This document shows, one piece after another, positions 4,583 through 53,685 of a stretch of DNA of 64,000 nt (the first letter of the stretch is position 1; each line of letters opens with the position of its first letter). This DNA is from Candidatus Omnitrophota bacterium (GTDB lineage: Bacteria > Omnitrophota > Gorgyraeia > Zapsychrales > Aceulaceae), in NCBI GenBank assembly GCA_028693815.1, contig JAQUUP010000007.1:4921-68920 (forward strand), given 5' to 3'. The notes beneath the pieces were generated by a model. It saw only the letters and a list, made by a program, of their open reading frames with translations, did no database searches and had not been told where the DNA came from. Both the position numbers and the translations under genes were made by a program.

Positions 4583-5064
4583 ATACTCAAAAGAAAATTG
4601 TAAGTCTAGATATTCTAAAGAAGAAAATTGTTATTTTTCGAAAAAAAGGCAAGAGAATTATTTTTACGAATGGATGTTTTGATCTTTTACATATTGGCCA
4701 TGTTAATTATTTAGAAAAGATTAAAGGCCAAAATGATATTTTAATTGTTGCCGTTAATAGCGATGCTTCTGTGAAGAAAATAAAGGTGACCGGCAGGCCT
4801 GTTCAATCGCAAAGATCACGCGCGGGTGTTATTGCAGGTCTTGAGGCTGTTGATTTTGTTATAATTTTTTCTGAAGAAACGCCATATAATGTTATTAAAG
4901 CTTTAAAGCCAGATGTTCTTTTAAAGGGCGCAGATTGGAAGTCAAAGGGAGTTGTCGGTCAAGATATCGTTGAGTCGAGCGGGGGAAGTGTTAAGTTTGT
5001 TAAATATTTAAAAGGTTTTTCAACAACAAGTATTATTGAGACAGTTTTAAAGAAATGCGTATAA
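4579..5064 (+). CDS. D-glycero-beta-D-manno-heptose-1-phosphate adenylyltransferase (RfaE domain II / HldE C-domain-like)
   Basis: 161 aa cytidylyltransferase-like fold with FTNGCFDLLHIGHVNYLE (H-x-G-H motif); 4-bp overlap with gmhA. Confidence 0.8.
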   Translation: MNTQKKIVSLDILKKKIVIFRKKGKRIIFTNGCFDLLHIGHVNYLEKIKGQNDILIVAVNSDASVKKIKVTGRPVQSQRSRAGVIAGLEAVDFVIIFSEETPYNVIKALKPDVLLKGADWKSKGVVGQDIVESSGGSVKFVKYLKGFSTTSIIETVLKKCV

Positions 5065-8862: not shown

Positions 8863-10024
8863 ACAATTAGAAGTAAGAAATTTAGCTCCTTATGCGATGT
8901 GTAGCAGGGATTCTGCAGGGCGCGTTTATGCGGAATCTCTTGATGATAAGCGCACATGTTATCAGAGAGACCGTGATCGTATTGTGCATTTGAGGGCGTT
9001 TCGAAATCTTGAATATAAAACGCAAGTTTTCCCTATTTTTGAAGGAGATTATTATCGAACGCGCTTAACACATACATTGGAAGTGGCCCAAATTGCAAGA
9101 ACGATTGGTCGTAATTTGATGCTCAATGAGGATTTAATTGAAGCTGTTGCCCTTGCCCATGACCTCGGTCATCCACCTTTTGGTCATGCAGGAGAAAAAG
9201 CTCTTGATGAAATTATGAGCGAAGAAAAACTTGAAGGATTTTTTAGCCGTATTACTGGAAAGCATAAACCTAAGGGATTCAATCACAATAAGCGAAGCTA
9301 TGAAATTGTGACGCGCGAAAGACGCTATCCGAATTTTGAAGGATTAAATTTAACAAAAGAAGTTTTGGTTGGTATTCTCAAACATAAAACTGTCTATGAT
9401 ATTCCTTCAAGCGAGGAAGAATTCTTAAAAGAATTCCCAACTTTAGAAGCGCAAGTTGTTAATGTTGCTGATGAGCTTGCGTATCTTGATCATGATATTG
9501 ATGACGGGCTTGCGTCGGGATATATTAAAAAAGAAGACTTGGCAGAAAGCAAGCTTTGGACAACAACATTGGATCAAGTTCGAAAAACAACAAAAAGTAC
9601 AAATGAAATTATTGAACGCAATCAAATTGTCAAGAATCTTATTAATATACAGGTTGTTGATCTTTTACAGAATTCAGATAAAGCGATTGAAGAAAGAAAT
9701 TTTAAGTCTGTTTTGGATGTTAAAACGCTCGGAGAAACTGTTATTAAGTTTAGCGATGAAATGGATCAAGAGCGATGTAAACTTCAAAAGTTAATTAATG
9801 AGAAATTATACCACCATTATCGTGTTGAGCGCATGACAATGAAAGCTAAAAGAGTTGTGCATCGACTTTTTGATATTTATAGTAGTAATTTGAATCAGTT
9901 GCCATATGAGATTTATGATAGACATGTTCAATATGGCAAGCAAGAGGAACGAGAAGTTATCTGTAATTTTATTTCTGATATGACTGATCGTGCAGCTCTA
10001 TCAGAATATAAGAAATTGATTTAA
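8840..10024 (+). CDS. dgt: dGTP triphosphohydrolase-like HD-domain protein
   Basis: 394 aa; YQRDRDRIVH...FRNLEYKTQVF N-terminus and HD motif HDLGHPPFGH; 23-bp overlap with the HIT gene. Confidence 0.8.
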   Translation: MRTREEIEQLEVRNLAPYAMCSRDSAGRVYAESLDDKRTCYQRDRDRIVHLRAFRNLEYKTQVFPIFEGDYYRTRLTHTLEVAQIARTIGRNLMLNEDLIEAVALAHDLGHPPFGHAGEKALDEIMSEEKLEGFFSRITGKHKPKGFNHNKRSYEIVTRERRYPNFEGLNLTKEVLVGILKHKTVYDIPSSEEEFLKEFPTLEAQVVNVADELAYLDHDIDDGLASGYIKKEDLAESKLWTTTLDQVRKTTKSTNEIIERNQIVKNLINIQVVDLLQNSDKAIEERNFKSVLDVKTLGETVIKFSDEMDQERCKLQKLINEKLYHHYRVERMTMKAKRVVHRLFDIYSSNLNQLPYEIYDRHVQYGKQEEREVICNFISDMTDRAALSEYKKLI

Positions 10025-43116: not shown

Positions 43117-44497
43117 TCTAAATTTGCTACAAGCGGTGATCGCGATTGTTTTAATGTTGGCATTAGGATTTTTTTGCTATGTTGTCAATTTTTCGCTATC
43201 TATTCCTCTTTTGATTCTGCTTTTAGGGCTATATCTAAAGGGATACAAGAACATTGATACAAAATTGTTTTTGCATTTCGGTTTTCTTTTAGCATTGATT
43301 GTTTTTGTTACGCACGCCCTTTTGACTTATACGACAATTTCCGCACTTTATGTTCCGGTTGCGGCGGTGGCAATGATTGTGATGCTTTTGTACAATGATT
43401 TGCAGCTTGCTTTTGTTATGTCATTTGCGTCAAGTATTTTGGTTGGGTTGGTTGCTGGTAATCGATTGGACTTAACGATTGTTTATTTTTGTGGAAGTTT
43501 AATGGGTGCTTTTTGTGTACGCGATTCAAGGACACGTTCTGAGCTTTTAAACGCTGCGTTCTTTGTTGGGATTTTGCAGGTTTTATGTATCGTGCTTTTA
43601 AATCCTTCTAAAGAGTTTTTGTTTTCTAGAGAGTTTGTCCTTGTTTATTTGCGTGCTTTGTTTTTTAATGGTTTTATTTCTGCAGCGGTTGTTCTGGTAA
43701 CATTAAAAATATTTGAAAATCTTTTTGGAGTTATGACCAATTTTAGCCTTTTGGAGCTATCTGATTTTAATCATCCTTTGTTAAGATTGATGATTTTAGA
43801 ATCTCCGGGGACATATCATCATAGTTTATTTGTTAGCAATTTATCCGAAACAGCGGCTGATGCGATTGGTGCTAATTCTCTTCTGGCGCGTGTGGGTGGA
43901 TATTATCATGATATAGGAAAACTTGAGAAACCTCAATATTTCACTGAGAATCAGATTTTTGAGGGTAATCGACACGACAAGCTTGAGCCATCAATGAGTC
44001 GGCTTGTTATTCTGAATCATGTTAAAGATGGAATGGAGCTCGCTAAGAAATACAAACTAAATCCGATTATTTCTGATTTTATTCTTCAGCATCATGGTAC
44101 AAGTGTGATGCATTATTTTTATCAACGTGCAATTTCTGAGGTATCAGATGGGCAAACAGTTGACGAACAAACATTTCGATATCCTGGCCCAAAGCCACAA
44201 ACGCGAGAGACGGCCATTGTTCTTTTAGCGGATTCCGTTGAGGGTGCCTGTCGATCTCTTGATGAGCCGACACCAACACGCATTGATGATACAGTGCGAA
44301 AAGTGGTCAACAATAAATTTATTGATGGACAACTCGACGAGTGTAATCTTACGCTTAAAGATCTTGATCGAATTAGTGCTACATTTTCTCGCGTATTAAG
44401 TGCGATGTATCATAGTCGAATCAAATATCCAGAAAAAACAGATGGCTATACAGCTAACCGTAAAAAATCTACAGAAGAAAATTCCAATAAATCTTAA
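43094..44497 (+). CDS. 7TM receptor with intracellular HD hydrolase (7TMR-HD / YqfF-like)
   Basis: 7 N-terminal TM helices, then an HD domain (YYHDIGK); conserved phoH-HD-ybeY order. Confidence 0.8.
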   Translation: MKDRILNNLNLLQAVIAIVLMLALGFFCYVVNFSLSIPLLILLLGLYLKGYKNIDTKLFLHFGFLLALIVFVTHALLTYTTISALYVPVAAVAMIVMLLYNDLQLAFVMSFASSILVGLVAGNRLDLTIVYFCGSLMGAFCVRDSRTRSELLNAAFFVGILQVLCIVLLNPSKEFLFSREFVLVYLRALFFNGFISAAVVLVTLKIFENLFGVMTNFSLLELSDFNHPLLRLMILESPGTYHHSLFVSNLSETAADAIGANSLLARVGGYYHDIGKLEKPQYFTENQIFEGNRHDKLEPSMSRLVILNHVKDGMELAKKYKLNPIISDFILQHHGTSVMHYFYQRAISEVSDGQTVDEQTFRYPGPKPQTRETAIVLLADSVEGACRSLDEPTPTRIDDTVRKVVNNKFIDGQLDECNLTLKDLDRISATFSRVLSAMYHSRIKYPEKTDGYTANRKKSTEENSNKS

Positions 44498-44882
44498 TCT
44501 CATTAAGCAAAAGATTGTCAGCATTCTTTGTTCTGAGAATGTTTTGGATGCTGATCTCTCTGTCGTGTTCTTGACAGACCAGCGGATTCGAACGCTTAAT
44601 AAGAAATATCTTAACCATGATTATGCAACGGATGTGTTGTCATTTGATTTATTATCCCATCAGAAAATAAGTAAGAATAAATATCTTGAAGGTGAGATTT
44701 TTGTATCGGCTGAGACTGCATATCGAAATGCGAAGATATATGGCTCGACTGCTTCACAAGAACTCATGCTTTATGTGGTTCATGGAATTTTGCATTTATT
44801 AGGATATAACGATAAAACCGTGCTAGATATAAAGAAGATGCGCGCAAAAGAACAACAAATATTTAATTTTCTTAAGAAATGA
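44442..44882 (+). CDS. ybeY: rRNA maturation RNase YbeY
   Basis: HGILHLLGYNDKT zinc-binding motif. Start trimmed to the Met of MAIQLTVKNLQ; the longer frame overlaps the HD gene. Confidence 0.85.
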   Translation: MAIQLTVKNLQKKIPINLNLIKQKIVSILCSENVLDADLSVVFLTDQRIRTLNKKYLNHDYATDVLSFDLLSHQKISKNKYLEGEIFVSAETAYRNAKIYGSTASQELMLYVVHGILHLLGYNDKTVLDIKKMRAKEQQIFNFLKK

Positions 44883-45613
44883 TTCTTCAAGCTGAAGGTA
44901 TTGTTTTAAAGACTTTTGATTTTCGAGAGACGAGCCGTATCGCAACATTTTTTACAAAAGAATACGGCAAGGTCAAAGGGGTTTTAAAAGGAATCCGAAA
45001 AGATCACAAAAAATTTGGAAGTAACATTGACCAGTTCTCGGTCAATGACATTGTTTATTACACTCACCGTAATTCTGATTTACATCTTATTAGCCAGTGT
45101 GATTTAAAAGCGTTTTTCTTTCCGATTCGACAAGATATGAAAAGAACTTTGGCGGCAAGTTATTCGTTAGAATTGGTAGATTCTATCATGCCGGTTGAAG
45201 AGCCAAACAAAGATATTTATAGGCTTTTATTGTATTATTTAAATACACTGGAACATACCGATGATATTAATAAGTTGGTGCATATATTTCAAATTAAGAT
45301 TTTATTGCTCTCTGGGTTTCGTCCATTTTTAGATTCGTGCGTGGTTTGCCAGAACAAAATAACGCCTCGTATGCGTTTTAGCATGAAATTGGGAGGTTTG
45401 ATTTGTGAAGACTGTCGATCCAATGATCATTCGGCCAATATGGTTTCAAGAGGGACTATTGCTTCGCTAGTGCATATTGAAAAAAGTAGCTGGGAGAAAG
45501 CTTTGCGATTGAATCTTTCGGTGATGACGGAGAAAGAATTAAAATATATTCTTAATAATTTTCTTATATTTCATCTCGAGCGTCACATCAAAGCGACAAA
45601 GTATTTAAAATAA
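44879..45613 (+). CDS. recO: DNA repair protein RecO
   Basis: Begins ILQAEGIVLKTFDFRETSRI; OB fold plus C-terminal Cys4 zinc finger (CVVCQN...CEDC). Confidence 0.85.
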   Translation: MILQAEGIVLKTFDFRETSRIATFFTKEYGKVKGVLKGIRKDHKKFGSNIDQFSVNDIVYYTHRNSDLHLISQCDLKAFFFPIRQDMKRTLAASYSLELVDSIMPVEEPNKDIYRLLLYYLNTLEHTDDINKLVHIFQIKILLLSGFRPFLDSCVVCQNKITPRMRFSMKLGGLICEDCRSNDHSANMVSRGTIASLVHIEKSSWEKALRLNLSVMTEKELKYILNNFLIFHLERHIKATKYLK

Positions 45614-45695
45614 GGACATGACTTAGAGAGCTTTTGCGAATCTAAGTCATAAGTCCGAATTTATTCCGAGCGCAAGCGAGGAATCGCAAAAGGTG
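45614..45695. repeat. inverted-repeat element between convergent recO and helicase genes, copy G (likely bidirectional terminator / repeat relative)
   Basis: GACTTAGA-gagcttttgcgaa-TCTAAGTC and CGAATTTATTCCG (reverse complement of the CGGAATAAATTCG motif seen in copy F). Confidence 0.45.
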
Positions 45696-47876
45696 CTAGA
45701 ATTTAGAGCGATTGAGCTGAGAAAGGATTTCTTTGGCAAGTGTTTTGCCGATTTGATCGACGCTGGAAAGATCATCAAGAGAAACAAATTTTAGCTCAGA
45801 AAGTCTCTTGTGTCCTTTTTCAAAAAGATTGCGCGCACGAACGCGCCCCACGCCTTTAAGCGAGACAAGCTCTAGAAGTTCTTCCCGAATACCATAACGA
45901 ACGCGATTTCTTAAATCTTCGGTTTCAAAGGTGAGGCGTTTGAATTTAAAAAGTTCTGCAATCACACTGGCTGCGTGAAAAATCCACCGAACACTTTCGG
46001 TATGACGATGAATATCCCCAGGACCCATGTTAAATTTTTCACAAATATTTTCTTCTTTTTCTTCATCAATCCAGCAAGACAAAAACCATGCTGTTTTAAG
46101 TGTTGTCATATAAAAAAACATGTCGTCAAGCTCGGCAACATCGTTTCGTGTCATAACAAAATCTTCTCGATATTCGGCTGCAAAATTTTCAAGATCATCA
46201 TAGATCGACTTTGCAAGGTTGACTGTTCGTTCAGTGTCAGGGCAACAACAAATGAGATGTAAAAGCCCGACAACGGTGAGAGGGGCTTTGTTTTCATGAA
46301 TTTTCTTAAGCCCATTGCGAAGGATAATGCCTGTAATTGGATCAATATAGAGTCGGCTAACGCAATGGCCAAAGGCGGTTGCAAAATAACGAAAACCACT
46401 TTTTTCAACTAATTGTTCTTCTTCTAGAAATTCAAAAATTTCACTGATCATTTCAATCAGATGAGAAGTTTGTCTTTGGTGTGCCAAAAACGTGTGAGAG
46501 ATAAATTCAAACATTTCATTGATGTCATGGACGTGTCCGGCTGAAATTGCTGCCAAGACGTGCATGCGAAGCGCAGATTCATTTCCTAGCTTTGAGATGA
46601 CTGGCTCAGGGTCAGCATTAATATAGCGATCAAATAACAGTTGAGACTCAGAGAGCGACTTGGCGATAATAACAGCCTCGCCATATTCATCATACCCAGG
46701 TCGTCCAGCACGCCCAGCGCATTGTTTGTATTCGCTAGCTGGAATGTATGCGGCTCCGACGCCTGCTTGATAGCGCTTGGTATCGCGCAAGATTGTCCGT
46801 CGCGCAGGAAGATTAACGCCCGCGGCTAATGTTGGTGTTGAGCAAATGATTTTGATAATGTTTTGCTTAAAACTGTCCTCAATTAATTTTCGTTGGTGAG
46901 GCCTAAGACCTGCGTGATGAAATGCTACGCCATGCTCAACAACATTAGCTAGTTTTCTACAGATTTTTGTTGATTCGCCAGAGCCTGACAAGACATTTCT
47001 GGCGATGGATTTTAGTTTCTTTTTTTCTTCTGGGCTTAAGATACTGTCAACGGCTTTGCATAAAGATAAGCTTGAAGCTTGTGCAGAACGCCGGCTATTG
47101 ACGAAAACAAGAATTTGACCTTTTGAGCGAAGAGTGTCGAGTGCAAGTTTGCTTAAATCGTCAGGCAGCTCTTCTTTAACAAGACGCCGGCCTGCGTTTT
47201 TAAATGTAATTTGTTCGCCAAAATAAACGCCTTCTCTTAACGGCACAGGTCGCCATGTGCTTTGGACGAATTTAGCACCCAGCCAAAGGGCAATTTCATC
47301 AGCATTTTTTACCGTTGCGCTTAATGCTAAGATTTGTGAATTCGGATTAAGTTGCTTGATGCGTGCTGTTAAGATTTCTAAAGTTGGACCACGAGACTCA
47401 TCGTTGATAAAATGAATTTCGTCTAAAACCACAACCGATAATTCATCAATCAGCCATTTGGCTCGAGAACGTAACAGTGAGTCGACTTTTTCAGCTGTTG
47501 CAATGATAATTTGATATTGATTAAGACGCTTGCTCGGACTATCAAGGTCACCGATGGCAATGCCAACTTTAATCCCAAGTGGGCTGTATTTTTTCTTGAA
47601 TTCTTCGTATTTTTCACTGGCCAATGCTTTTAAAGGGGCAATATAGAGGCAGCGGCCATTTGTTTGGATGATGGCTTTGATCATGCACAGTTCTGCAATC
47701 AACGTTTTTCCAGCGGCTGTTGGGATTGCCAAAAGAAGATTTTCTCCGTCTAGAGCACCTTTTTCTATTGCTTCGGCTTGCGGAGGGTAGAACTCTTTTA
47801 TTTGGCCGTTTAAAGTTGCAGCTTGAATAAATTCTTCTGGAAGCTTATAAGTTTTAAGAGTTTTTCGAATGTCCAT
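45696..47876 (-). CDS. Hel308/Ski2-like superfamily-2 DNA helicase
   Basis: 726 aa; N-terminus YPPQAEAIEKGALDGENLLLAIPTAAGKT, DEIH box, winged-helix/ratchet, and C-terminal helix-hairpin-helix (GVGRVRARNL). Confidence 0.85.
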   Translation of the reverse strand: MDIRKTLKTYKLPEEFIQAATLNGQIKEFYPPQAEAIEKGALDGENLLLAIPTAAGKTLIAELCMIKAIIQTNGRCLYIAPLKALASEKYEEFKKKYSPLGIKVGIAIGDLDSPSKRLNQYQIIIATAEKVDSLLRSRAKWLIDELSVVVLDEIHFINDESRGPTLEILTARIKQLNPNSQILALSATVKNADEIALWLGAKFVQSTWRPVPLREGVYFGEQITFKNAGRRLVKEELPDDLSKLALDTLRSKGQILVFVNSRRSAQASSLSLCKAVDSILSPEEKKKLKSIARNVLSGSGESTKICRKLANVVEHGVAFHHAGLRPHQRKLIEDSFKQNIIKIICSTPTLAAGVNLPARRTILRDTKRYQAGVGAAYIPASEYKQCAGRAGRPGYDEYGEAVIIAKSLSESQLLFDRYINADPEPVISKLGNESALRMHVLAAISAGHVHDINEMFEFISHTFLAHQRQTSHLIEMISEIFEFLEEEQLVEKSGFRYFATAFGHCVSRLYIDPITGIILRNGLKKIHENKAPLTVVGLLHLICCCPDTERTVNLAKSIYDDLENFAAEYREDFVMTRNDVAELDDMFFYMTTLKTAWFLSCWIDEEKEENICEKFNMGPGDIHRHTESVRWIFHAASVIAELFKFKRLTFETEDLRNRVRYGIREELLELVSLKGVGRVRARNLFEKGHKRLSELKFVSLDDLSSVDQIGKTLAKEILSQLNRSKF

Positions 47877-48110
47877 AGTTTTTTAAGCGTTTCAATGTAA
47901 AAATAATGACTAGTTCTAACACAAATGGGTAGTTGTGTCAAACTTCAAGGGTCTCCTTAATAATAGTGAAAACGGCTTTTGTATCGTGCACGTAAAAGTT
48001 AGGAAACTAATATTTAGATAGATATTTATTAGGATTCTTATTATAATTCAAGATAATTATAAATTTTTGATCTTTTGTTTTTTGGCCCCCGTCAGTTTCT
48101 GTGATCATGA

Positions 48111-49081: not shown

Positions 49082-49200
49082 TTAATAATATAAATGATCG
49101 CATGTTTTTATGGAGCAACGACGACATAAAACATATGCGAGAATTTATCCCGAGATATTCTAAGAAAGAATATATCGGGATTATATCTGAAAGCTTATTT

Positions 49201-49647
49201 ATGAAAATTGTTATTCAAAGAGTTAAGCAAGCGAGTGTTACGGTTTCTCAGAAGATTATTGGCAAAATTGATCAGGGAATTTTGGTTTTGTTGGCTATTG
49301 CCAAAGACGATGATGCAAGTGATATTGAATATTTGGTTAATAAGCTTGTGGATTTAAGAATTTTTGAAGATCAAGACGGCAAAATGAATGCTTCTGTTTT
49401 AGATATTAAAGGTGAATTCTTAGTTGTATCGCAGTTCACACTTTTAGCGGATTGTAAAAAAGGCAGAAGGCCTTCTTTTGATAAGGCGGCTGATCCAAAA
49501 AAGGCCAAAGAGCTCTACGAGCAATTTGTTGAAGTTTTGCGCAAAAAAGGATGCAAGGTCGAAACCGGAGAGTTTGGCGCGACGATGGATGTCGCGCTTG
49601 TTAATGATGGGCCCGTGACGTTTACGCTAGAGAGCGCAGAAAATTAA
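49201..49647 (+). CDS. dtd: D-aminoacyl-tRNA deacylase
   Basis: 149 aa, [13 protein letters not shown]..., SQFTL motif, C-terminal [10 protein letters not shown]. Confidence 0.88.
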
Positions 49648-49975
49648 TGGAAACCCCACGTCGCTTAAAAAGCGCTCCTGGGGTAAATTCAACCTAAGAC
49701 TTGCGTCGCATTTTATAAAATGATGATGCTCCGCAAGTCAAAGGATTCATTTATGATGGATGTCGCACTTGTCAATGATGGGCCTGTGACGTTCACGCTA
49801 GAGAGCGCAGAAAATTAATGGAAACCCCACGTCGCTTAAAAAGCGCTCCTGGGGTAAATTCAACCTAAGACTTGTGTCGCATTTTATAAAATGATGATGC
49901 TCCGCAAGTCAAAGGATTCATTTATGATGGATGTCGCGCTTGTTAACGATGTGCCTGTGACGCTGATTATAGAGA
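49584..49975. repeat. 171-bp tandem duplication (2 full + 1 partial copy) of the dtd 3' end plus an intergenic repeat element
   Basis: Unit starts at 49584, 49755 and 49926 (GATGGATGTCGC...); copies about 95% identical; the third copy diverges after about 45 bp. Confidence 0.9.
49753..49818 (+). pseudogene. duplicated dtd C-terminal fragment ([21 protein letters not shown])
   Basis: In-frame copy of the last 20 codons of dtd preceded by ATG-ATG and the element's RBS. A further degraded copy lies at 49924-49995. Confidence 0.6.
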
Positions 49976-50088
49976 GTAAGGGTGTTGGTATCTAGTATCT
50001 AGAAAGGGAAAAAGCGGCAGGGAACGGGTGATAGGCATTTTTGTTATTATTAGACAAGAAATTGAGAAGAAGAAAAAGGAGGGGTACA

Positions 50089-50397
50089 ATGGGCAAAAAA
50101 GAACAATTAGTATCGGCGATAATGGGAGGTTTTGCGATTGCAACTTTTATTTCTTTTGTTGAATTTACTATTTATAAGGATGATTCTGTTAATTTCTTAG
50201 TAGCTAAATTTCTTTTTTATTTTGCATCTTTCATTATAGTAATGTATTTCTCTGTATCTCAGCAAAAGAAACGAATGGATAAGTGGAAAGAAAACCACTA
50301 TTCAAAATTAAATCAAGAAGAATTCAGGTGTTTTAAGTGCAAAGCTCTTATTAATCAAGATGACGAAAAATGTCCTCAGTGTGGATGGAAATGGTAA
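50089..50397 (+). CDS. small membrane protein with C-terminal zinc ribbon
   Basis: Two TM helices, then CFKC...CPQC; AAGGAGG RBS before MGKKEQ. Confidence 0.5.
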   Translation: MGKKEQLVSAIMGGFAIATFISFVEFTIYKDDSVNFLVAKFLFYFASFIIVMYFSVSQQKKRMDKWKENHYSKLNQEEFRCFKCKALINQDDEKCPQCGWKW

Positions 50398-50430
50398 AGA
50401 ATTCCAGTGACCCGTCTAGGGTAATTTAAA

Positions 50431-50706
50431 ATGAAGAAAATTATAATAGCGCTTATTATTTTTAGTTTTTGTGGATGCGGTCTGGTGCCTGCTTATAGAC
50501 GAGCTCAGCCTGATTTTCAAAAAGCTGCAAATATGATGCTTTATGGTGGCTCAAAAAATATGGTTCGATCAGATTGGGGAGAACCCGATAAGAAGGAAAT
50601 TCTTGAAGATGGCACAGAAGCATGGACGTATTATAATCGTCAAGATGGTAGAACTTTTATTTTTTATTTTAATAAAAAAGCAAGGCTTGTAAGAGCTAAA
50701 ATTTAA
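50431..50706 (+). CDS. small lipoprotein, BamE/SmpA-OmlA-like
   Basis: Lipobox FCGC; about 70-aa mature domain with MVRSDWGEPDKKEI...EAWTY, like SmpA_OmlA. Confidence 0.4.
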   Translation: MKKIIIALIIFSFCGCGLVPAYRRAQPDFQKAANMMLYGGSKNMVRSDWGEPDKKEILEDGTEAWTYYNRQDGRTFIFYFNKKARLVRAKI

Positions 50707-50791
50707 TAAGGCGGCTGGTGCTTTTTAAGGTTTTCTTAATTAGGTACGTGTCCCCGGAACTATGCTCAGGACAGAAAGAAGAGGATAACAG

Positions 50792-51754
50792 ATGAAGAAA
50801 TTTCTACTTGCCACAGGTATTGTGTTGATTGTTTTTGCTGTCTTGATGTTTTTAATTGACGCTTCTTCAATGTGCATGATATCTGTTATTTGCATGATCA
50901 TTGGTGGATGTATGTTGGGTTATAGCGATTGGCTTGCCATTAATGATATTAGAAAAGAAGTCAGTGCTAGTTCAGTATTTTGTTTCTTATTAGCTCTAAC
51001 AACAGCGGCATTGATTGCTTTATCAACGCGTATCGGAATTATCGTCGAATTAGTGACTCCTTTTCTGGTCCTAGCTTCGCTGGTGACTGGTGGTATTTTC
51101 TTTTTTTTCTACAAGAAAAAAGGTGGGCTGCTGTGCTTTAAGTCTGTAGCTATAACAGGAGTATCACTTAGTGTATTCATGTCAATGATGGTTATTCTTG
51201 GCATTATTGATAATTTTTCGAATTTTCCAGAAAGTTATAACGATCGAGCTTCACAATATAAGTATTGGAAAGCCAGTGAATATGTTTCACGAGACAAATG
51301 GGATGCTGCGATCAAAGAACTTGATGAGGCGATAGCCTTGTCACCCGACGATGGCCGCTATTATGAAAAACGGGGTTACGCTTATCTTAGCAAGGGTGAT
51401 GATGATAAAGCCATGTCTGATTATAAAATGATGGAGCTCTATTCTAATGAAAATTCTAGAGGTTTAAGCTATGGAGCTCGTGGTGATGTATATTTGAAAA
51501 GAGGCGAATATGATAAGGCAATAACGGATTATAGCAAGGCCATTGAATTGTCAAAGCACTTTTTGGAGCCTTACTATCAAGGACGCGCTAGAGCATTCTT
51601 TGAGAAGAATGAATACGACAAAGCATGGGAGGATCTTCAAAAGCGAACCCTGTATTTTGAACCGACTCAAGAGGAAGATTTTGTAAAAAAACTTAAAGAA
51701 TGGAATAAGAATAAAACAATTCGCGCGAGTTATCCTGGGCTTGATGGACACTAG
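50792..51754 (+). CDS. membrane protein with C-terminal TPR repeats
   Basis: 4-5 TM helices, then TPR motifs (AIALSPDDGRYYEKRGYAYLSKGDDDKAMSDY...). Confidence 0.55.
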   Translation: MKKFLLATGIVLIVFAVLMFLIDASSMCMISVICMIIGGCMLGYSDWLAINDIRKEVSASSVFCFLLALTTAALIALSTRIGIIVELVTPFLVLASLVTGGIFFFFYKKKGGLLCFKSVAITGVSLSVFMSMMVILGIIDNFSNFPESYNDRASQYKYWKASEYVSRDKWDAAIKELDEAIALSPDDGRYYEKRGYAYLSKGDDDKAMSDYKMMELYSNENSRGLSYGARGDVYLKRGEYDKAITDYSKAIELSKHFLEPYYQGRARAFFEKNEYDKAWEDLQKRTLYFEPTQEEDFVKKLKEWNKNKTIRASYPGLDGH

Positions 51755-51828: not shown

Positions 51829-52860
51829 ATGGTTAAAAAACTTTTGAAATCAATTCAACTTAAAGTTTCTCTCGCCGGCAATTATCCGGCGCTGGCTGCG
51901 CGCGTGAAAGGTGAGCTGAGTAGTCTTGAGGTTCTTGTTAAACGAGAGACCATTAAGTCTTATTGGAATATTGGGAAATTCATTCATAGTCATTTGCTGG
52001 AAAATAAGGAAAGAGCCCAATACGGAAATCTATTGTACGAACGGCTTTCTAGAGATGTAGGCAGGGATAGTTCTACTTTAAGGCGGACAGTAAAGTTTTA
52101 TCTTGCGTATCCTCGAATTCAGGCCTCGAGGCCTGAATTGAATTGGACACAATATAAGCAATTAATTACGATTAAAGATAAAGACGAGCGAAAACAGTTA
52201 GAAGAGCAGTTTGTTAAAAAGGGATTTGACGCGCGTAAATCCCAGGCGTTCTTGAATTTCAAAAAAACACAATTAGCTGCCAAAGACGCGCCTGACAAGC
52301 CGGTTGTGCAATTATCATTTGCTCGAGGAAAACTTTTGACGTACAGCTTTATTGAAAGTAAGGAGTCGGATGTGGGATTGCTCCTTGATTTAGGTTTTCG
52401 AATTCGCAGGAACTTCGAAGAGTTAAAGGGCACAAAATTTGTTAAAGGTGATTGCGTTAGGGTTTTAAACAAAAACTCTTTCGTCAAAGCAGACGTTAAA
52501 AAAGAAGAACTTTTTACATATTTCGCGACCATTGAAAAAATCATCGACGGCGATACGTTGACAGTTTTGCTCGACTTAGGGATGGGGTTGTTTGTTCAGC
52601 AGAAATTGAGATTACGAGGAATTGATTGCCCGGAGATGGATACCGATGATGGAGTGAGGGCAAAAAAGTTTGTGCAGACCAAGCTCGGTAAGCTTGATTT
52701 TATTATTGTCAAAACTTACAAAGATTCAAGCGACAAGTACGATCGGTATTTGGCAGATATTTTTTATTTGGTTGATGAGCGCGACCCTGAAAGGGTCGCG
52801 CAAGAAGGCGCTTATCTTAATCAGGTGCTTTTGGACGAACGCTTGGCGTGCGTGTATTGA
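51829..52860 (+). CDS. DUF1016(YhcG)-N domain fused to staphylococcal-nuclease (SNase/thermonuclease) domain
   Basis: N-terminus YWNIGKFI...YGNLLYERLSRDVGRDSSTLRRTVKFYLAYP (DUF1016_N pattern); C-terminus IDGDTLTV...LRLRGIDCPE...DRYLADIF (SNase motifs). Confidence 0.6.
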   Translation: MVKKLLKSIQLKVSLAGNYPALAARVKGELSSLEVLVKRETIKSYWNIGKFIHSHLLENKERAQYGNLLYERLSRDVGRDSSTLRRTVKFYLAYPRIQASRPELNWTQYKQLITIKDKDERKQLEEQFVKKGFDARKSQAFLNFKKTQLAAKDAPDKPVVQLSFARGKLLTYSFIESKESDVGLLLDLGFRIRRNFEELKGTKFVKGDCVRVLNKNSFVKADVKKEELFTYFATIEKIIDGDTLTVLLDLGMGLFVQQKLRLRGIDCPEMDTDDGVRAKKFVQTKLGKLDFIIVKTYKDSSDKYDRYLADIFYLVDERDPERVAQEGAYLNQVLLDERLACVY

Positions 52861-52929: not shown

Positions 52930-53685
52930 ATGAAAACGATTTATTTAAAATTATGGATGACATTGTTTGCTTGCCTTGTTTTTGGTGTTCAGGGTGTTAG
53001 TGCCCAAGACGGTAAGGGAGACTTGATTGCTGGTGGAACGGTTGTGATTTTAGGTCAAAGAATATCGCCACCTTATAAAATTGAAATAAGAAATAACGAG
53101 ACATGGATCAACGACATTCTCGCTGAACCTCTTGTGAACAAAAGGGCTCGAGTCCTGCCAGTTGTCACAGATGATATACGAAAGAAGCATGATTTTATTT
53201 CTCGTCTTACGGACGACTATTTGTATTTTTATAAACGATTTGGACGAGAGAAATTTCAAAAAAAACTTTTAGAAAAATATAAAAAAGATTCTTCTGCGTC
53301 ACAGTTAAATTTTTATAAAGAAGATTTAGAGGTGATTTTTAAAGATGGAGAAAAAGAGTTTTTGATGATGGGCCATTCGAGATCTCTTATTGATCGAAAT
53401 ATTAGTCGTGAAGAATGGGCAAGAACGGTTAAGGAAGGTAATCAAAATGCCCGAAGAGAAAGCATTAAAATGCATGAGCGGCTTCTTAAGCGGGGTGGGA
53501 TGTTGATTTATGATTATGGAAGTATGTCTGCTATGCCGCCTGCTATTGCTCAAAACATTATTGCAGGTTTAAAAAATTTAAAAGAAAATTCTTGGTCTTT
53601 GGAACAAACTCGAGAAGAGCTTAAACGCTTAGGAATTTCGGATCGTGTTTTTGAGCATATTCAAGAAAATTGTGCCTCTTGGTAA
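52930..53685 (+). CDS. secreted hypothetical protein
   Basis: Signal peptide (FGVQGVSAQ); 251 aa, charged, no recognisable family. Confidence 0.45.
   Translation: MKTIYLKLWMTLFACLVFGVQGVSAQDGKGDLIAGGTVVILGQRISPPYKIEIRNNETWINDILAEPLVNKRARVLPVVTDDIRKKHDFISRLTDDYLYFYKRFGREKFQKKLLEKYKKDSSASQLNFYKEDLEVIFKDGEKEFLMMGHSRSLIDRNISREEWARTVKEGNQNARRESIKMHERLLKRGGMLIYDYGSMSAMPPAIAQNIIAGLKNLKENSWSLEQTREELKRLGISDRVFEHIQENCASW

Follow-up and report, generated by a model that had tools for sequence, protein, structure and literature searches.

A YhcG-type DUF1016 head joined to a staphylococcal nuclease domain in a large protein family of Omnitrophota

Here we describe a gene of Candidatus Omnitrophota bacterium that encodes a three-module protein, in which the helical head of the YhcG/DUF1016 family is followed by a conserved β-domain and an intact staphylococcal nuclease (SNase) domain. 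The gene lies on contig JAQUUP010000007.1 of assembly GCA_028693815.1, of which we analysed positions 4,921–68,920 of the forward strand (64,000 nt; hereafter the window, in whose numbering coordinates are given). According to the list of open reading frames (ORFs), it occupies 51829..52860 on the + strand, starts with ATG and encodes 343 amino acids (aa) plus a stop codon. The original prediction, made from the sequence alone, had proposed a fusion of DUF1016_N and SNase at exactly these coordinates, and the Pfam models of both domains score above their gathering cut-offs. Its two-domain anatomy held in part: both named domains are present, the helical N-domain at residues ~19–153, and a separate β-domain at ~171–225 lies between them, which makes three modules. 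The layout of the gene is as follows.

51829..52860, + strand: complete ORF of the DUF1016_N/β-domain/SNase protein (ORF list; both Pfam domains above gathering scores).
51829..51882, + strand: residues 1–18, variable low-confidence N-terminal tail without signal peptide (predicted local distance difference test (pLDDT), conservation, hydropathy).
51883..52287, + strand: residues 19–153, all-helical DUF1016_N domain, putative DNA-binding module (Pfam, hhalign, Foldseek).
nt 52021–52107, + strand: ParB/Noc-like helix-turn-helix (HTH) region, helices 65–77 and 81–93, inside the DUF1016_N domain.
52288..52338, + strand: residues 154–170, linker with a conserved (F/V)-T-R-G motif at its end (pLDDT dip, conservation).
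52339..52503, + strand: residues 171–225, small five-stranded β-domain (secondary structure of the model, conservation).
nt 52387–52398, + strand: L-D-L-G-F motif of the β-domain (conservation in 258 sequences).
52504..52857, + strand: residues 226–343, staphylococcal-nuclease oligonucleotide/oligosaccharide-binding (OB)-fold domain with a complete active site (Pfam SNase, PHROG 452, Foldseek, phmmer against 4df7).
nt 52543–52557, + strand: IDGDT (SNase D19/D21), SNase active-site motif.
nt 52609–52635, + strand: RLRGIDCPE (SNase R35/D40/E43), SNase active-site motif.
nt 52741–52764, + strand: DRYLADIF (SNase R87), SNase active-site motif.

The head of the protein is homologous to that of canonical YhcG. 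Pfam DUF1016_N (PF17761) matches residues 36–137 with 57.3 bits against a gathering cut-off of 32.8. As a reference for canonical YhcG we used a small profile of YhcG proteins that are annotated 'PDDEXK nuclease domain-containing' and encoded on four plasmids, with which hhalign aligned the family over ~135 columns (query residues 11–146 with YhcG 3–148; probability 99.4%, E 1.6e-21). Nothing past residue 146 aligned with canonical YhcG in this comparison, and the protein gave no Pfam match to PF06250 (YhcG_C, PD-(D/E)XK) at E<=1. The 23 PADLOC PDC-S02 models that match the protein (E 2e-20) do so only within residues ~17–159, their alignments covering the N-domain part of each profile rather than its full length. 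The N-domain was described in 2005 as an unknown helical domain of ~200 aa, and the YhcG family proper carries a C-terminal PD-(D/E)XK nuclease with an E-D-E(I/L/V)K motif (PMC1189080). Because homology to YhcG stops at residue 146, the linker, β-domain and SNase of the window protein (all beyond residue ~150) stand in place of the YhcG linker and PD-(D/E)XK domain. These alignments indicate that the PD-(D/E)XK effector is truly replaced by SNase, in agreement with the nuclease swap that had been proposed. The architecture is thus an effector replacement within the 'YhcG head plus nuclease' kind, found in a large family and not as a one-off.

An AlphaFold2 model of the full protein (input of 43 family sequences; mean pLDDT 86.5, predicted template modelling score 0.63) consists of three modules: a helical N-domain, a five-stranded β-domain at residues 171–221 and an OB-fold with three helices at 230–336. 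The N-domain comprises one long helix at 19–58 and further helices at 65–77, 81–93, 106–112, 118–131 and 135–153. pLDDT is <50 for residues 1–10, in an N-terminal tail whose column conservation is 0.13, falls to 75–78 over residues 141–160 in the linker region, and is mostly >90 in the SNase domain, with one block at 79. All 43 aligned family members (43/43) match both the DUF1016_N and the SNase Pfam models.

Next, the SNase assignment is supported by profile, structure and active site alike. Pfam SNase (PF00565) matches residues 259–342 with 25.1 bits against a cut-off of 21, with a best E of 3e-10 over the 43 members. Foldseek superposed the C-domain of the model on staphylococcal nuclease crystal structures (probability 1.00, target TM ~0.67, root-mean-square deviation 2.4–2.7 Å, 117 columns), which settles in its favour the AlphaFold check that had been suggested for the fusion. 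The peptides quoted in the original prediction, IDGDT, LRGIDCPE and DRYLADIF, are indeed SNase active-site motifs: alignment to SNase (phmmer, 4df7) equates D240/D242 with D19/D21, R261 with R35, D266 with D40, C267 with the T41 backbone ligand, E269 with E43 and R306 with R87. Residue conservation was computed over 258 diverse family sequences, in which D240 is retained in 100%, D242 in 99%, R261 in 100%, E269 in 94% and R306 in 100%; the D40 equivalent, D266, is D in 81% and N in 18%, giving D or N in 99%. Because the catalytic residues are conserved across these sequences, the SNase domain is predicted, from sequence and model, to be catalytically intact and the enzyme active. The closest SNase profile is a phage family, PHROG 452 'endonuclease' (residues 197–318, E 9e-26), and the SNase part also matches a PADLOC model described only as 'SNc+LTD'. 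The NCBIfam equivalogs EcnA and NucI gave sub-threshold scores only (29.9 bits vs 180 and 20 bits vs 250, respectively). Relatives of the C-domain consisting of SNase only, at 28–43% identity, occur on giant-virus (GVMAG) bins and phage contigs (IMG/VR), and BFVD fold matches include 'TNase-like' proteins of Mimivirus, Pithovirus and cyanophage.

Conservation marks the middle β-domain as an obligatory part of the protein. In its L-D-L-G-F motif, D187 is conserved in 99%, G189 in 100% and F190 in 100% of the sequences, and the linker motif retains R166 in 89% and G167 in 96%; the R-G and D-x-G-F motifs vary as little as the active site does, and purifying selection is seen on all three modules. 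No part of canonical YhcG resembles the domain (hhalign probability 0.45%), and a profile search yielded no PDB sequence relative (best E 1.9). Pfam returned weak matches to DUF1506, OB_RNB and Med18, all below their cut-offs, and the PHROG 452 match starts at residue 197, within the β-domain. We also considered a decayed PD-(D/E)XK domain with SNase appended to it; this was rejected on the same hhalign value and on the finding that no PDC-S02 model extends beyond residue ~159.

On four weak, independent and convergent lines, the N-domain resembles an HTH DNA-binding domain of the ParB/Noc type. Pfam HTH_ParB matches 20 of the 43 family members at E<=0.01 (best E 1e-5). When a family profile of residues 1–226 was searched against PDB sequences, the top match was Noc (7ng0, E 0.019), in an alignment spanning residues 64–146, that is, the Noc HTH plus the helices after it. 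Foldseek, given a separate model of residues 1–226 (pLDDT 75.5), placed the Noc DNA-binding domain on DNA (6y93, probability 0.97), ParB (7bnk, 6sdk) and SopB at the top, and the N-domain carries a net charge of +12. No match to the N-terminal ParB/Srx CTP-binding domain of ParB was found in Pfam at E<=1; a long single helix precedes the HTH instead. DNA binding by the head module is a well-motivated inference from these sequence and model comparisons. The head can be argued to be the DNA-targeting part because effector replacement coincides with a ParB/Noc-like HTH signature, and it is an autonomous module, with a job independent of PD-(D/E)XK chemistry, because the same head sits here on a different nuclease fold with a breakpoint at residue ~146.

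These features allow us to propose how the protein may work. Module 1 (~19–153), positively charged and ParB/Noc-HTH-like, would most likely bind double-stranded DNA, and it may dimerize, possibly via its 40-residue N-terminal helix. Module 3 (226–343) would then cut nucleic acid near the module 1 site by the Ca2+-dependent mechanism of the SNase fold, and module 2 (171–225) might couple or regulate the two ends, or provide a second DNA contact. The result would be a DNA-binding head tethered to a non-specific cutter, the layout of canonical YhcG (with PD-(D/E)XK as the cutter) and of FokI. SNase chemistry, as known from S. aureus nuclease, requires Ca2+ far above the levels of the normal bacterial cytoplasm; because of this requirement, the enzyme would probably be latent in healthy, intact cells.

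The protein is probably soluble and cytoplasmic, as judged by a hydropathy heuristic (maximum 10-residue hydropathy) rather than a dedicated signal-peptide predictor. The N-terminus of the protein reaches a maximum of 1.08, vs 2.5–3.6 for three exported or membrane neighbours in the window, and the scan revealed no signal peptide, lipobox or membrane anchor; among the 258 relatives, an N-terminal value >2.0 occurs in only 1.2%. This bears on the idea of an exported nuclease for feeding or predation, which would degrade extracellular or host DNA as Nuc and YncB do. In its favour are the complete active site, the name 'endonuclease YncB (thermonuclease family)' given to homologs by JGI and NCBI, and the fact that Ca2+-rich conditions outside the cell suit SNase chemistry best. 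However, an export signal is absent from the query and from 98.8% of its relatives, exported neighbours score clearly by the same measure, and the SNase is fused to an intracellular-type HTH DNA-binding domain, so that we consider export very unlikely.

The original prediction took the architecture to be novel, which fails if novelty means rarity, as it is largely a common, already catalogued architecture of a large, annotated family. A word-indexed search found 1021 clusters at 90% identity (E<=1e-3), of which the best 120 are all ~340 aa long with 41–86% identity, plus one 100% match; the Pfam records of these best 120 clusters hold both domains in 95 cases and DUF1016_N only in 25. An exhaustive search of 1.84 billion 50%-identity representatives gave 6255 matches at E<=1e-3, 1407 at <=1e-10 and ~484 at <=1e-30, and ~130 of the top 150 are full-length (>=300 aa). 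Of the clusters at <=1e-30, nearly all that carry a name come from metagenome-assembled genomes of Omnitrophota. In GTDB, with one genome per species, at least 415 stretches encode a relative, a lower bound from a scan keyed on two catalytic peptides. Locus, flank and paralog analyses cover the best 80 of these 415 stretches with ±6 kb flanks. These 80 loci are nearly all from Omnitrophota, including ENA bins labelled 'uncultured Planctomycetales', and a few are from Latescibacterota, Spirochaetota, Opitutaceae and Syntrophaceae bins.

Database names of the homologs include 'thermonuclease family protein' and 'DUF1016 N-terminal domain-containing protein' besides the YncB label (JGI, NCBI). 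The 100% identical protein (P0001) is in GenBank, on a 72-kb contig of an NCBI Omnitrophica metagenome-assembled genome; its GenBank name gives the DUF domain only and its precomputed Pfam record misses the SNase, a caution for annotation in that the nuclease domain of this exact protein goes unseen. We found no paper describing a DUF1016_N–SNase family; the papers found to mention DUF1016 describe no SNase fusion, and searches of the literature on 'EcnA' and on Omnitrophota nucleases returned nothing relevant. Together, these results show a family that is large, visible in databases and mostly from Omnitrophota, undescribed in the literature and functionally uncharacterised.

As to its role, we narrowly favour, and only tentatively, a soluble cytoplasmic HTH-tethered nuclease with a stand-alone, DNA-targeting role in conflict, directed against invaders or towards self-destruction, in a domesticated family long resident on the chromosomes of Omnitrophota. 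This preference draws on the links of the head family to restriction–modification (RM) systems and mobile elements, the PADLOC 'SNc+LTD' match, the phage-family SNase profile, the occurrence of paralogs in unrelated contexts, and an RHS neighbourhood in Leptospira. The match to the PADLOC candidate PDC-S02, the overlap of canonical YhcG genes with integrase genes, and a handful of toxin–antitoxin or accessory flanks point the same way. These flanks are a minority among the 128 flanking proteins of the 80 loci: Polbeta 4, NTP_transf_2 3 (possibly overlapping with Polbeta), DUF4143/AAA_14 3, PIN_2 2, ORF6N 2 and Bro-N 2. Canonical YhcG has been linked in the literature to type I RM loci, programmed-inversion loci and conjugative elements (PMC3424549, PMC9881135, PMC4316617), and we found canonical YhcG genes on plasmids that overlap integrase genes or adjoin parA. 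On IncP-type plasmids of Citrobacter (L089:287–2622) and P. aeruginosa (L090:290–2631), the gene for a canonical PDDEXK YhcG shares 4 bp with the 3′ end of a site-specific integrase gene, an arrangement suggestive of an integrase–YhcG operon on those plasmids. Close upstream in L089, but in opposite orientation, is a gene annotated 'thermonuclease family protein'.

A divergent branch occurs in a cultured organism, Leptospira weilii, whose plasmids carry full-length homologs of the window protein (27% identity, 97–98% coverage). Plasmid pD13 (NZ_CP040845.1, L086) encodes two 94%-identical DUF1016_N–β–SNase homologs at 226–1224 and 8977–9975, each followed after ~420 bp by an RHS-repeat toxin fragment and a small ORF; one of the fragments has a NucA/NucB DNase tip. 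Because the two copies are one segmental duplication, the RHS adjacency counts as one observation, and its use as independent, repeated evidence was rejected. The Leptospira copies keep L-V-D-L-G-F, IDGDT and the equivalents of R35/E43/R87, have W at the D40-equivalent metal ligand ('RLHNVWAAE') and do not reach the Pfam SNase cut-off. This branch, tied to polymorphic-toxin cassettes, may have been inactivated or re-purposed.

The loss of the D40-equivalent ligand and of a Pfam-level SNase score in this plasmid branch would suit a non-catalytic DNA-binding protein, a regulator or nucleoid protein whose SNase fold serves as an OB-fold binder. Most SN domains of eukaryotic Tudor-SN serve as nucleic-acid-binding OB-folds, and an HTH head could act as a repressor. 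However, the Omnitrophota family, including the window gene, retains its catalytic residues at 94–100% (D/N at the D40 equivalent, 99%), and because of this retention a pure binding role is unexpected; we rate it as highly improbable.

Several observations weigh against the explanation that we favour. Its molecular part is drawn from sequence and models, and Ca2+ gating is an extrapolation from S. aureus nuclease. On the window protein itself, Pfam HTH_ParB (PF17762) reaches only 12.8 bits where the cut-off is 22.6 (E 0.14), Foldseek matches to the N-part have weak E-values (0.06–0.3), and the putative recognition helix shows no extra divergence among paralogs. The sole tested representative of PDC-S02 that we found gave no protection against T4, T5 or T7 (bioRxiv 10.1101/2024.09.26.614923). 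Flanking genes are mostly housekeeping (PdxA, KsgA, LpxI, aminoacyl-tRNA synthetases, single-stranded DNA-binding protein (SSB), LexA, epimerases), and the 25 most frequent flank families listed include none of RM, integrase or transposase type. Searches of 50,697 INPHARED phage records and 2.9 million IMG/VR contigs found no full-length copy, the matches there being SNase only. In a neighbour-joining tree, copies from the same genome fall into different deep clades, each with orthologs from several genomes, and the 86%-identical ortholog of the window gene (L083) keeps the locus from dtd to the downstream gene, whose exported product is 76% identical.

Copies number two or three in at least 17 genomes of the best 80 loci and share 35–50% identity. 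The CAZWOH01 and CAYYRJ01 pair recurs in two separate clades of the tree, MHGQ01 and DPIG01 are each represented in three, and a few recent duplications are also present. From this tree the copies look like old paralogous subfamilies inherited within the phylum, and not like turnover. Within the 64-kb window, tblastn found no second copy. An identity-matched comparison of the HTH region gave 0.40 within genomes vs 0.35 between genomes; diversification of the recognition helix among paralogs was rejected, the region being no more diverged within than between genomes. With no preferential divergence of paralogs in this region, there is no sign of diversifying DNA specificity.

The association with defence islands or mobile elements that the original prediction had raised was not borne out by the genomic context. 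The 128 immediate flank proteins of the 80 loci match 122 Pfam families, mostly housekeeping and none of them more than 4 times, with no recurrent neighbour. A conserved partner or immunity gene was sought by all-against-all clustering of ORFs and rejected, as no neighbour occurs in more than 9 of the 80 loci and none at a fixed position. More distant orthologs adjoin pyrD/pyrF, mgtE, or SSB and trehalose genes. Of between-genome pairs with >=55% identity, only 13% have a gene in common within ±3 positions, a value that is ambiguous for want of a phylum baseline for synteny decay and is therefore used neither for nor against vertical inheritance; of within-genome pairs, 0/29 do. A BFVD fold search returned SNase-like proteins only, in line with the absence of full-length copies from the phage and viral sets. 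The gene is therefore stand-alone, with nothing to suggest a phage or defence-island setting.

In the window, the + strand carries in order genes for a radical-SAM protein and dtd, a tandem repeat, a 118-aa Zn-ribbon membrane ORF, a 91-aa lipoprotein-like ORF and a 320-aa tetratricopeptide-repeat (TPR) membrane protein, followed by the nuclease gene, a 251-aa exported protein, tatD and two oxidoreductase subunits; a Hel308-like helicase is encoded upstream on the opposite strand. The neighbours are thus dtd, membrane proteins, tatD and oxidoreductase genes rather than the defence island or mobile element associated with PDC-S02. The nuclease gene had been placed immediately downstream of the tandem array, which in fact lies 1.9 kb and three ORFs upstream, and a link to the array or the neighbouring membrane proteins is not supported: in the 86%-identical ortholog, the segment from dtd to the nuclease gene is entirely different. 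This interval between dtd and the nuclease gene is replaced or variable: three membrane, lipoprotein and TPR ORFs at 49963–51754 in the window correspond to one unrelated 358-aa membrane protein in the ortholog (L083:1014–2186).

The repeat itself consists of a 171-bp unit present 2.2 times at 95% identity (49584–49962), near the 3′ end of dtd. Each unit recreates the last ~20 dtd codons, the stop codon and ~100 bp of downstream sequence, and the end of a third, degenerate copy resembles the 3′ end of native dtd in L083, the closest relative; by its sequence, the repeat looks like a duplication or insertion at the dtd 3′ end. In the dtd ORF (49102–49647), the Tyr_Deacylase Pfam match starts at residue 35 ('MKIVIQRVK'), 34 codons past the listed start, and translation probably begins at the internal ATG near 49204. 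The 251-aa protein (52930–53685) has a clear signal peptide and no Pfam family, and it lies directly downstream of the nuclease gene in L083 as well (76% over the 66 residues available). GC skew is positive across the window (0.14–0.28), with its only dip (0.04–0.09) at 44001–48000, which coincides with the single large minus-strand gene (45696–47876) for the Hel308-like DEAD-box helicase with archaeal 'domain 4' and helix–hairpin–helix motifs; nearly all large ORFs listed between 37 and 64 kb are on the + strand. The one tRNA in the window is 46 kb from the nuclease gene, and counts of promoter and terminator signals around the gene were at shuffle level and uninformative.

A lineage-specific DNA-housekeeping nuclease, in which the paralogs would be core chromosomal enzymes of Omnitrophota and the HTH would position the SNase on chromosomal DNA for repair, recombination, replication restart or chromosome maintenance, comes a close second, as a possible yet somewhat unlikely account. 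The family is centred on one phylum and its genes lie on large chromosomal contigs, some as long as 1.2 Mb, its deep paralog clades each hold orthologs from several genomes, and both catalytic and DNA-binding-domain residues are strongly conserved. Flanks are overwhelmingly housekeeping, with SSB and LexA families each flanking 2 loci; in one relative (L002), SSB is immediately upstream, with xseA/xseB also upstream. The window context of dtd, tatD and a Hel308-like helicase, the synteny kept with the 86% ortholog and the absence from the phage and viral collections searched fit the same account. Yet context is poorly conserved, going by the 13% of close pairs with a shared flank gene (a figure without baseline), and no recurrent functional partner was seen in the 80 loci. 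Two or three diverged copies of an unregulated, non-specific nuclease would also be unusual for a housekeeping function, and all known relatives of the N-domain are tied to mobile elements or RM systems.

The scattered loci could also be those of a selfish, free-standing gene that inserts between conserved genes and spreads, like a homing endonuclease, by cutting alleles without it, as free-standing GIY-YIG and HNH endonucleases of phages do. A modular DNA-binding head plus nuclease, encoded by a single free-standing gene in many unrelated intergenic contexts between housekeeping genes, would suit this idea, as would several diverged copies per genome, the lack of a shared flank in all 29 within-genome pairs, the mobile elements on which canonical YhcG relatives ride, and the replaced segment directly upstream of the window gene. 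We nevertheless regard it as improbable: the copies are old and follow genome lineages, no copy was found in the phage and viral collections searched, where such genes thrive, and the 64-kb window has no second copy. Moreover, SNase is a non-specific cutter, and neither a target site nor a presence/absence polymorphism was demonstrated.

A bolder reading, to which we give little credence, would have Omnitrophota carry two to four old, vertically inherited ParB-HTH-guided SNase paralogs as a hitherto unrecognised system characteristic of the phylum, each a DNA-bound latent nuclease switched on by Ca2+ entry, with the D-x-G-F β-domain as the switch. If this were true, Ca2+ entering, for example, when a phage or predator breaches the envelope or while the cell itself attacks a host would lead to destruction of DNA. 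That would amount to a new, calcium-gated form of intracellular DNA destruction and to the first functional handle on the YhcG/DUF1016 head.

Nothing in the system is mechanistically surprising so far. The YhcG/DUF1016 head is nevertheless widespread, a defence candidate, and of obscure function 20 years after its first description, so a mapped breakpoint, a ParB-HTH link and an invariant middle domain are testable handles on a long-obscure domain. Omnitrophota are an uncultured phylum whose cells are very small and may depend on hosts, and the family stands out as a multi-copy feature of this lineage. Its practical value is modest and lies in a compact 'binder plus SNase' scaffold.

Finally, we compared the window protein with known systems. 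With YhcG/DUF1016 (COG4804; PF17761 + PF06250; PDC-S02) it shares a homologous helical head and the single-gene logic of 'head plus nuclease'; it differs by ending in an SNase OB-fold instead of PD-(D/E)XK and by its extra D-x-G-F β-domain. Whereas YhcG is found at RM loci, integrases and plasmids (PMC3424549), the window family is chromosomal, flanked mostly by housekeeping genes and centred on Omnitrophota, and its tree suggests old vertical inheritance. The fold and full catalytic set are those of SNase/thermonuclease proteins (PF00565, COG1525; S. aureus Nuc, B. subtilis YncB/NucH), but classical members are secreted or membrane-anchored and single-domain, whereas the window protein has no export signal, ~225 extra N-terminal residues and two more domains.

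Likeness to the ParB/Noc/Spo0J HTH (PF17762) is remote and covers residues ~64–146, which align with the Noc HTH and the helices following it; there is no match to the CTP-binding domain and nothing like the C-terminal dimerization domain of ParB, and the window protein is not a partition protein. SNase folds that act inside cells have precedents in the plasmid RK2/RP4 ParB nuclease, which serves plasmid stabilization, and in eukaryotic Tudor-SN (SND1), which combines SN domains with a small β-barrel Tudor domain; neither carries a DUF1016_N/HTH head, and the likeness is limited to the SNase fold. FokI and I-TevI each join a separable DNA-recognition module by a linker to a nuclease module. 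The window protein resembles such FokI-type (Type IIS) and I-TevI-type nucleases by analogy, as a putative DNA-recognition module tethered by a linker to a nuclease that would cut nearby; the folds of both modules are unrelated to theirs, and no methyltransferase partner, recognition site or mobility has been shown for the window gene.

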